Shown: positions 6,033-8,518 of the stretch, in pieces
Position numbering within the stretch: position 1 is the first letter of the stretch
Layout: each line of letters begins with the position of its first letter
Virus record (IMG/VR): IMGVR_UViG_2874920711_000001
Length of the DNA stretch: 40,896 nt
Direction: 5' to 3' (one strand)
Source of the DNA: a virus
Lineage: Duplodnaviria > Heunggongvirae > Uroviricota > Caudoviricetes
Position numbers and translations under genes: made by a program
Notes under the pieces: generated by a model
Told to the model about the DNA's origin: nothing
Seen by the model: only the letters and a program-made list of their open reading frames with translations
Databases searched by the model: none

Positions 6033-6075
6033 TGAGGTGTACTGGCAATAGCGGACACTACCATTTGTTCTTTTT

Positions 6076-6894
6076 TTAAGCAGCCATCTGATGATATTTT
6101 TCCCTGAAGGCTGCCGGGGAGATATTCCCCAGACGAGAGTGACGACGCTGACGATTGTAGAAAATCTCAATGTATTCCCGTATTACTGAGATGGCTTCAT
6201 CCCGGTTATTAAAACGATAGTGGCTCAGGCTCTCATTTTTCAGCGTTCCCCAGAAGCTTTCCATCGGAGCGTTGTCGTAACTGTTACCTTTACGCGACAT
6301 TGATGTTTTCAGACCAAACTGCTCCTGTATGACCCGGTAATCGTATGCGCAGTACTGTGAACCTCGATCAGAGTGGTGGATTAGCCCGGCAGGTGGGCGC
6401 TGGCTCCTGAGCGCCATAAACAGGGCTTTACCTGTCAGCTCTTTTGTCATGCGCTCTCCCATGGCGTAGCCGACAATTTCGCACGTATAAACATCTTTGA
6501 TGCCAGCGAGGTACAACCATCCCTCCTGTGTGGCAACATACGTCAGGTCCGCCACCCAGACCTGATTTGGTGCTGTAGGAGCGAACGTCTGGTTCAACAG
6601 ATTTGGCGCAACTGGCAGATTGTGGTTCGGGTTCGTAGTCGCTCTGAACTTGCGTTTCTGCTTACAGCGTAGCCTTAGCTCCTTACGAAGACGTGCCAGT
6701 CGGTCACGACCAACGATGATGCCATTCTCTGCCAGCTCCGTCTGGAGCCGCCGGGTTCCATATGTTTCGCGAGTGCGGATATGTGCCACCTTAATCTCCA
6801 GTTTTAGCCGCTCATCACTTTGTTTTCTGTCTGAGGGTTCATGCTGTACCCGGTTGTAATAACCGCTCCTGGATACACCAAATACCTGACACAT
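6076..6894 (-). CDS. IS600 OrfB
   Basis: 272-aa ORF identical in family to the 1204-2022 product. Confidence 0.85.
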   Translation of the reverse strand: MCQVFGVSRSGYYNRVQHEPSDRKQSDERLKLEIKVAHIRTRETYGTRRLQTELAENGIIVGRDRLARLRKELRLRCKQKRKFRATTNPNHNLPVAPNLLNQTFAPTAPNQVWVADLTYVATQEGWLYLAGIKDVYTCEIVGYAMGERMTKELTGKALFMALRSQRPPAGLIHHSDRGSQYCAYDYRVIQEQFGLKTSMSRKGNSYDNAPMESFWGTLKNESLSHYRFNNRDEAISVIREYIEIFYNRQRRHSRLGNISPAAFREKYHQMAA

Positions 6895-6971
6895 CGCTTC
6901 AATGGGAAATTGTTGTCGCCATTGTTCGATTAACGCGTATTTTTCAGCGACTCCTGTGCAAAATACGCTGT

Positions 6972-8191
6972 TGTAGATTCAATCTGTCAATGCAACACCC
7001 CTTTCAATTATCTCTTTCGGTGTTTTGAACTTCAGTGTCTTTCTCGGTCTGTTGTTTAGCTGAGCAGCAACCAGATCTAGTTCATGTTGAGTATATTGGG
7101 CAAGACATGTCTTTTTAGGAAAGTACTGCCGAATTAGCCCATTTGTGTTCTCATTTGTTCCCCGCTGCCAAGGACTCTGAGGATCGCAGAAGTAAACTTT
7201 AACGCCGGTGCTGACAGTAAATTCTAGATGTCTGGCCAGTTCCATTCCTCTGTCCCATGTCAGTGATTTTCTGAGTTCTGACGGTAAACTCAGGAATTTG
7301 TCGGTAAGAGCCTGATTTACTGAGACAGAATCTTTGCCCCTGAGTCTAAGGATGATCGTATAACGTGATTTTCGGTCTACAAGTGTGGCTATATGAGAGT
7401 TTTTTGTACCTGAGACTAAATCGCCCTCCCAATGCCCAGAGAGCGTCTGTTATCGATATTTCGGGAACGTTCGTGAATTGGTGTTCCGTTCACTATGTTA
7501 ATCGTACCTCTTTCGCCTTTGCGGGTATGACGCCTGCCATGGCGAAGGCTATGCGACCGTCGCAGATGCTGTATATTCAGGTGGTGTAGCGCTTCACGGC
7601 TACGAAAGTACAGCGTTTTATAAATTGTCTCAGGTGATATTCGCAGCGTTTTTTGACGTGGTTTTGTTCGCCTTAACCATCCTGATATTTGCTCTGGAGA
7701 CCATTTCATCTCCAGCTTTTCCAGAACAAGCTTTCGCAATGGTAAATTTTGATCCAGTAAGCACGGTTTTGGCCTTTTCGCCATTCTGTTGGCTCGGTTA
7801 TTAGCATCAACAGCTTTGTAATAGCGTCTGCCCCGATTACGCTGAACTTCACGTGAGATCGTCGAAGGACTGCGATTCAGCGCAGTAGCTATCGCACGAA
7901 TGCTCATTTTGGCTGACAAACCAGCTCGTATCTCCTCGCGCTCAGACAGTGTCAGGTGAGCTACAGCCCGCTTACGCTCATGGGGTTTTATGCCGCCAGT
8001 ATCCCTTAACATAGTGAAGATCGTTCCGGGTTTTGAACCCAGGATATTCGCTATTTCACTGAAGCCTGTTCCGTTCTTCCATAGTTCAAAAACAGAGGCT
8101 TTTTCCTCTGCTGTAAATGTTCGTCTCATTCAAAAAACCTCCGCAACCCCATGTTTTCACATAACTGTTGCGTTGACCAATTGAATCTACA
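6972..8191 (-). mobile_element. IS30 copy (1220 bp) nested in IS600 orfA, 2-bp duplication
   Basis: Ends TGTAGATTCAAT...; IS600 sequence resumes on both sides with a duplicated dinucleotide. Confidence 0.8.
6979..8129 (-). pseudogene. IS30 transposase, frame broken by 1-bp contraction of a C/G run near 7435
   Basis: 237-aa ORF 7416-8129 plus 88-aa ORF 6979-7245 together cover the 380-aa protein seen uninterrupted at 35531-36673. Confidence 0.8.
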
Positions 8192-8518
8192 GTTGCTTTT
8201 TTTAATATATCTCGCTCAAGGCGAGCTTCATTTAACGCCTTACGCAGTTGCAGAATTTCAGATTCCAGTTCAGCCACCGTGCGGGAACCAGGAGTACCGA
8301 GCCCTTTTCTGGCGGCGGTAACCCATTGTCCTAAAGTGCCTTCAGGAAGGGATAATCGGGAAGCGCCTTCACTGATCGAAAGTTGATTTTCAAGAACCGT
8401 TCTGACAGCTTCGGCTTTGAACTCTTTAGAGTAACGTTGGGTTTTTCTGCTCATTATTAGCTCCTTCTGATGCCATTCTATTTCAGGAAGGAGTGTCCGT
8501 TAAACTCAGGCTACCTCA

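Follow-up and report, generated by a model that had tools for sequence, protein, structure and literature searches.

The DNA analysed here, a stretch of 40,896 nucleotides to which we refer as the window, carries at positions 6033-8518, on the minus strand, an IS600 element with an IS30 nested inside it. On either side of this composite element lie the remains of two phage genes. To the left is the 3' part, from about codon 88, of an Stf-type side tail-fibre gene (stf; 5242-6032, minus strand, PF08400), followed leftwards by a DUF4376 tail-fibre C-terminal module (4284-4901, minus strand) and then, on the opposite strand, by ipaH3 (2390-4105, plus strand), which encodes a type III secretion effector E3 ubiquitin ligase and is the cargo retained at this end of the prophage. 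To the right is the 5' remnant of a head-morphogenesis gene (8519-9008, minus strand, PHROG 324), beyond which lie an intact portal gene (8953-10392, 478 aa, PF06381 and phrog_146), an intact large terminase gene (10407-11735, 442 aa) and an intact small terminase gene (11725-12816, 363 aa). All of these are on the minus strand, on which the gene order is therefore small terminase, large terminase, portal and head-morphogenesis gene.

The junction element and the other IS600 copies

Using the intact IS600 at 802-2065 (1264 bp) as a BLAST query against the 40,896-nt window, we found five IS600 copies, whose flanks were then read directly. Copy A is the query itself (plus strand), copy B is the element at the junction, and copies C (17808-19987, plus strand), D (23324-25807, plus strand) and E (34577-37062, minus strand) lie further to the right. 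Read in the orientation of the IS, copies A, C, D and E are each flanked on both sides by the same three bases (TCC, TTT, GTA and CCA, respectively), whereas copy B has GTC on one side and ACT on the other. On the plus strand these correspond to AGT at 6030-6032 on the left and GAC at 8519-8521 on the right. An earlier reading of the window made from the sequence only had given the same mismatched flanks for this copy and matching 3-bp repeats for the other four, and the limits that it had drawn, 6033 and 8518, prove to be the exact ends of the nested element.

Copy B is the only one of the five copies that lacks a 3-bp target duplication. Because the duplication is intact in 4/4 of the other copies, each with a chance of 1/64 of matching accidentally, we regard it as the normal signature of IS600 insertion. 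Mutation of a former duplication does not explain copy B, since its flanks differ at 3/3 positions. The missing duplication argues against a simple insertion at this site and not against the identity of the element. Copy B has the IS600 terminal inverted repeats (TGAGGT.../...ACCTCA) together with orfA and orfB, and its two arms are 99.5-99.7% identical to the intact copy A. Pfam finds HTH_Tnp_1 and rve on the IS600 ORFs, and the RefSeq annotation of identical DNA in E. coli genomes names an 'IS3-like element IS600' and an 'IS30-like element IS30'. The IS30 of copy B (6972-8191, 1220 bp, minus strand) lies inside orfA at about nt 327 of IS600, with a 2-bp GT duplication at both ends. It conforms to what defines IS30, an element of ~1221 bp that has terminal repeats TGTAGATTCAAT..., encodes a transposase of 383 aa and duplicates 2 bp of target; the transposase frame is broken here into ORFs of 237 and 88 aa, and is intact (383 aa) in sister strains.

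Both flanking genes are interrupted precisely at the element. In the stf remnant, the PF08400 match begins at position 89 of the 134 positions of the profile, and alignment to the full-length 470-aa protein of EIEC RMDEC465 places the break after residue ~87. The sequence-only reading was right to recognise a tail-fibre gene on this side, but it had placed the junction in the middle of that gene, whereas the cut falls within the first fifth (~87 of 470 codons); this is the sole inexact detail of what it observed. Its description of the other flank as a truncated head gene just after the portal gene agrees with the PHROG 324 match, which is cut at codon 163 of 277. Here the head-morphogenesis gene is cut exactly at the IS600 end, and its remnant closes with two codons encoded by the IS and a stop. 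In sister strains the stf remnant and the DUF4376 module are fused in frame into one ORF of 588 aa; in the window (4284-6032) a frameshift splits them into ORFs of 268 aa and 205 aa. An Rfam hit for CssrB (chromosome-encoded Shigella sRNA B) falls at 2079-2261, just upstream of ipaH3 and on the opposite strand, and copy A of IS600 immediately adjoins it.

The prophage and its missing genes

The window holds one prophage only, inserted at the 3' end of sdsR and bordered by the host genes pphA (1-384) and yebY (40555-40896). An imperfect direct repeat of ~24 bp marks both of its ends, with the attR copy at 517-541 adjoining pphA and the attL copy at 40295-40319 adjoining yebY, the latter at the 3' end of sdsR/ryeB (40294-40393, Rfam match). 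The empty site L021 has pphA next to yebY, and it aligns to window positions 1-546 and 40293-40896, two segments that have the att repeat in common. Beyond the window, past pphA, come an IS4, then yebW, yebV, rsmF and further host genes. Within the prophage, the genes on both sides of copy B share one strand and follow the order of a late operon. We also observed that sdsR/ryeB overlaps sraC/ryeA and that the att repeat covers the terminator hairpin (40290-40434 and 517-541). An IS630-family element with a DDE_3 transposase (38038-39196) splits the integrase gene, as judged against the intact integrase of an orthologous EIEC prophage (L024 1148-2224), and this constitutes a second, independent block to excision.

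Three relatives carry capsid and contractile-tail genes at the position where the window is without them. The prophage of S. boydii CP026836.1 (L025; PMC12817139) is 99.7% identical to window positions 8519-17899 and reads on across the breakpoint, through the remaining part of the head gene to the DUF2213, major capsid, neck, sheath and tube genes, the DUF2213 gene itself being split by an IS110-family element. Protein look-ups returned no identical copy of the ipaH3 and DUF4376 proteins in this genome. In E. coli OkiPb01675 (L001), whose packaging module is 99.4% identical to that of the window, about 18.6 kb separate the breakpoint from the start of stf; its structural module matches, at 97.8% identity, the portion still present in another Shigella genome (L036). 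The prophage of EIEC FDAARGOS_943 (L024) is orthologous to that of the window and lies at the same yebY/pphA site. Over int, the early and lysis genes, stf, ipaH3 and the att sites it matches the window at 95-99% identity, and its capsid and contractile-tail genes fill 16.2 kb from the head-morphogenesis gene to stf.

In all three relatives the flanks run in the order and direction that they have in the window, the DNA that follows between them has no counterpart in the window, and homology stops exactly at both IS600 termini of copy B. The two E. coli relatives were read through to the fibre gene and the S. boydii relative as far as the tube genes. Taking the size of the deletion as the interval in the relatives plus the lost gene ends, this comparison supports the view that about 16.7-18.9 kb of capsid and tail genes were deleted at copy B. 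The sequence-only reading had anticipated this outcome: it held that the capsid and tail genes normally lying between portal and tail fibre are absent, put the loss at 10-20 kb, and proposed a comparison with intact related prophages, adding that a relative with portal and tail-fibre genes naturally adjacent would speak against it. These genes are adjacent in none of the three. The small terminase, large terminase and portal ORFs of the window (8953-12816) are full length despite the loss of all downstream capsid and tail genes, and trkG (13507-14571) is frameshifted relative to sister strains, giving 337/354 aa instead of 485 aa.

The junction at copy B is real and fixed in a clade, and is no assembly artefact. 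Over the 19 kb compared, the window and CP026824.1 do not differ (100% identity), and both sides of the junction are present in CP027027.1, UYIS01000022.1, AAMJ02000035.1 and PSSP01000002.1. In AMJQ01000114.1 and AFFZ01000060.1 the tail-fibre side only is seen, as these contigs end inside the element. The truncated head product of 165 aa is recorded in 70 blocks of public assemblies.

Origin of the deletion

We consider it probable that two IS600 copies in the same orientation recombined and thereby deleted the structural genes. Recombination between two copies had already been proposed from the sequence alone; the deletion itself is supported by the relatives, and the mechanism is plausible and the most likely one, although unproven. 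In this scenario, the starting point would have been the insertion of a lambdoid myovirus-type prophage with ipaH3 into the yebY-pphA interval, at the 3' end of sdsR. Later, and within a single Shigella lineage, the late operon of this prophage would have received two IS600 elements of the same orientation, the first in the head-morphogenesis gene at GAC (codon 163) and the second in stf at AGT (codon ~88). RecA-dependent homologous recombination between these direct repeats would have removed the intervening ~17-19 kb, and with it the rest of the head gene, the scaffold/DUF2213, capsid, neck, sheath, tube and tape-measure genes, as well as the baseplate, tail-fibre and tfa genes and the 5' end of stf. 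One hybrid IS600 would remain, with its left flank from one parent and its right flank from the other, which would explain why copy B has no target duplication. The resulting prophage, predicted to be unable to make particles, would still hold ipaH3.

The junction has what a recombination between two copies requires, namely a single IS whose flanks come from two different insertion sites, and it is from this that we infer the existence of two parental IS600 copies and the recombination step itself. Because both flanks keep their strand and late-operon order, a two-copy deletion is supported and an inversion is not. A pair of IS600 elements in the same orientation is plausible given that there are five copies in 40 kb. 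In addition, recombination is mildly favoured by the IS30, which splits orfA, so that copy B cannot make its own transposase. In the passages of the literature that bear on this point, deletions 'between homologous IS copies' are a recognised and accepted route of gene loss in Shigella (PMC7373316), and the loss of rbs next to IS150 in E. coli is likewise described as homologous recombination between two IS copies (PMC4173774).

Neither of the parental insertions (GAC/GAC in the head gene and AGT/AGT in stf) was found in the DNA or protein searches. For the precursor and reciprocal junctions, a chimeric 166-nt query matched nothing but IS600 ends in the complete E. coli genomes, and two exact patterns had no match in the GTDB species representatives; as Shigella is largely absent from both collections, these negatives carry little weight. 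Shigella genomes were reached by exact-protein look-ups only. When the full-length head protein was the query, no reciprocal fragment starting at residue 164 was present among the best 120 matches. A query with its C-terminal 114 aa gave 13 matches, none of them near-identical over the whole length of the query, and the sensitivity of this search is doubtful, as the known full-length proteins were missed. The IS600 arms of copy B have no chimeric SNP pattern and are sister to copy E, and in the same comparison of the copies the IS30 indels of copy B are common to copy D.

A less likely origin, which we doubt but take seriously, is that a single IS600 (or IS600::IS30) was present at one site and that a transposase-dependent deletion then extended from it to a new target site, either through intramolecular strand transfer or through deletion of IS-flanking DNA promoted by the IS-excision enhancer (IEE), as for IS3-family elements. 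Adjacent deletion of this kind keeps the IS where it was, one of its flanks being old and the other new, and its end product would be identical to what is seen at copy B, a lone IS without duplication whose termini coincide exactly with the breakpoints. At least two further IS600 junctions without target duplication exist in the prophage of other lineages, and as each of them also ends in stf, the process would appear to recur easily. Moreover, the searches of complete E. coli genomes and GTDB species representatives yielded no two-copy precursor. On the other hand, with an IS30 in its orfA, copy B has no OrfAB of its own, and the transposase would have to be supplied in trans; the description of IEE, for its part, concerns integrative elements of STEC. 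Copy-out-paste-in through a circle is the usual route of transposition for IS3-family elements, and it does not delete the donor flanks.

It is very improbable that the junction joins two prophages or distant regions, as it would if inversion or translocation through IS600 had placed an ipaH island beside a Rac-like prophage and the structural genes persisted elsewhere in the genome. What could suggest such a join is the mixed affinity of the two flanks. The packaging and trkG module is Rac-like, with 97% identity to K-12 Rac over trkG, and the near-identical packaging module of L001 belongs to a prophage among Rac genes, while the stf-DUF4376-ipaH module is found on both lambda-like and Mu-like tail backbones in EIEC. 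However, the EIEC prophage at the same site is one continuous phage, late-operon orientation is kept on both flanks of copy B, and the four other IS600 copies have intact duplications, so that none of them can be a reciprocal partner. Nor did the protein searches yield a C-terminal head-gene fragment, among the best 120 matches or with the C-terminal query of doubtful sensitivity. An inter-prophage rearrangement or an inversion was therefore rejected, since the window ends in pphA and yebY, neighbours in the empty site, with an att repeat at both ends of one prophage whose flanks are collinear and in late-operon order and strand. Finally, a simple IS600 insertion with a decayed duplication, or an assembly artefact at the repeat, has virtually no chance of being correct: the homopolymer-type indels in the IS30 and trkG of the window strain are possible sequencing errors, but all three flank bases differ, the flanking genes lie 17-19 kb apart in relatives, and the identical junction in independent assemblies, with the 165-aa head product in many short-read ones, refutes it.

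Other junctions, known systems and nested elements

Further IS600 junctions, likewise devoid of target duplications, were found in the ipaH3 prophage of other lineages (L036 13470-14733; L038; L040 13016-14279; L037 14331-16384; L020 ~690). In CP026845.1 and JARKNR01, the tape-measure gene is joined to stf at window position 5884 by an IS600 without duplication. In CP026846.1 and CP119446.1, trkG (window 14463) is joined to stf (~window 5432), again without duplication and with the IS600 in the opposite orientation, and in AKMW01000040 an IS600 end lies inside DUF4376 at window 4397. Every one of these other junction types retains ipaH3, and all junctions, that of the window included, end within a stretch of ~1.7 kb just upstream of this gene (window 4397, ~5432, 5884 and 6032). 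The tape-measure/stf junction and the window junction are independent, as each retains DNA that the other is without, and at least two other junction events are independent of the event in the window. It is thus conceivable, and we put it forward tentatively, that several independent IS600-bounded deletions of the ipaH3 prophage occurred across Shigella lineages, all ending near ipaH3. If this is true, the recurrent junctions would point either to convergent selection, in which the phage is disabled and the effector kept, or to an IS600 hot spot in stf. At the trkG/stf junction of CP119446.1 (L037 14331-16384), a partial second IS600 (nt 474-1264) directly follows a complete one, and in the related genome CP026846.1 these outer flanks enclose a single copy.

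ISfinder classifies IS150 in the IS3 family. For the IS150-linked rbs deletions of the E. coli long-term evolution experiment, the passages concerned present steps that were shown experimentally, whereas we infer them for the window, and the DNA deleted there is a catabolic operon rather than a phage structural module (PMC4173774). Closer in organism is the work of Hawkey et al. 2020 (PMC7373316), which likewise deals with Shigella, counts IS600 among five expanded IS and has a single IS at the junction, but which is a population-level survey; the sections of it available to us contain no description of the copy B junction in the ipaH3 prophage. In the account of IEE-promoted deletions in STEC accessible through a later paper (Kusumoto et al. 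2011, cited in PMC9397093), IS600 is a member of the substrate family and, as at copy B, regions flanking the IS are lost with breakpoints at the IS end. That system requires the iee gene, which is carried on SpLE1-like elements (PMC9397093).

The chromosomal ipaH islands of Shigella and EIEC are defective prophages, in which the effector at the tail-fibre end of a lambdoid prophage is kept and the structural genes decay; 'grounded' prophages as a general concept are reviewed in PMC6379469. The window does not differ from these in substance and may be taken as a worked example with exact breakpoints. The scar at copy B accounts for the predicted inability of the ipaH3 prophage to form particles, and together with the integrase split by the IS630-family element it shows how ipaH3 became fixed in the chromosome. 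Being common to a clade, the junction can also be used as a lineage marker. IS600-bounded loss of prophage structural genes is nonetheless an ordinary and well-known kind of prophage decay, and current understanding is left unchanged because IS-mediated prophage erosion is a textbook feature of Shigella genomes.

Several of the IS600 copies have themselves received other elements. Copy C is interrupted by a 914-bp IS5-family element (17900-18813) with a CTA duplication, which is annotated as ISSfl7-like in EIEC; in the S. boydii relative the IS600 at this site is plain. The IS30 elements of copies B and D (6972-8191 and 23651-24871) have two indels in common, a deletion of 1 bp and, at a distance of 437 bp, an insertion of 1 bp, which break the transposase of both into the ORFs of 237 and 88 aa; IS30 is intact (383 aa) in copy E and in copy B of sister strains. 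The shared indels could reflect gene conversion between the copies or sequencing error. In copies B, D and E alike (the last at 35514-36735), IS30 occupies the identical position in IS600. Copy A is plain in the window but carries IS30 in CP027027.1, and in PSSP01000002.1 an IS30 is found at the same IS600 position in inverted orientation. These observations, which include the loci L004 16991-19370 and L041 13624-16110, suggest that IS600 contains a hot spot for IS30 insertion, and not just that the nested element has moved as a unit.
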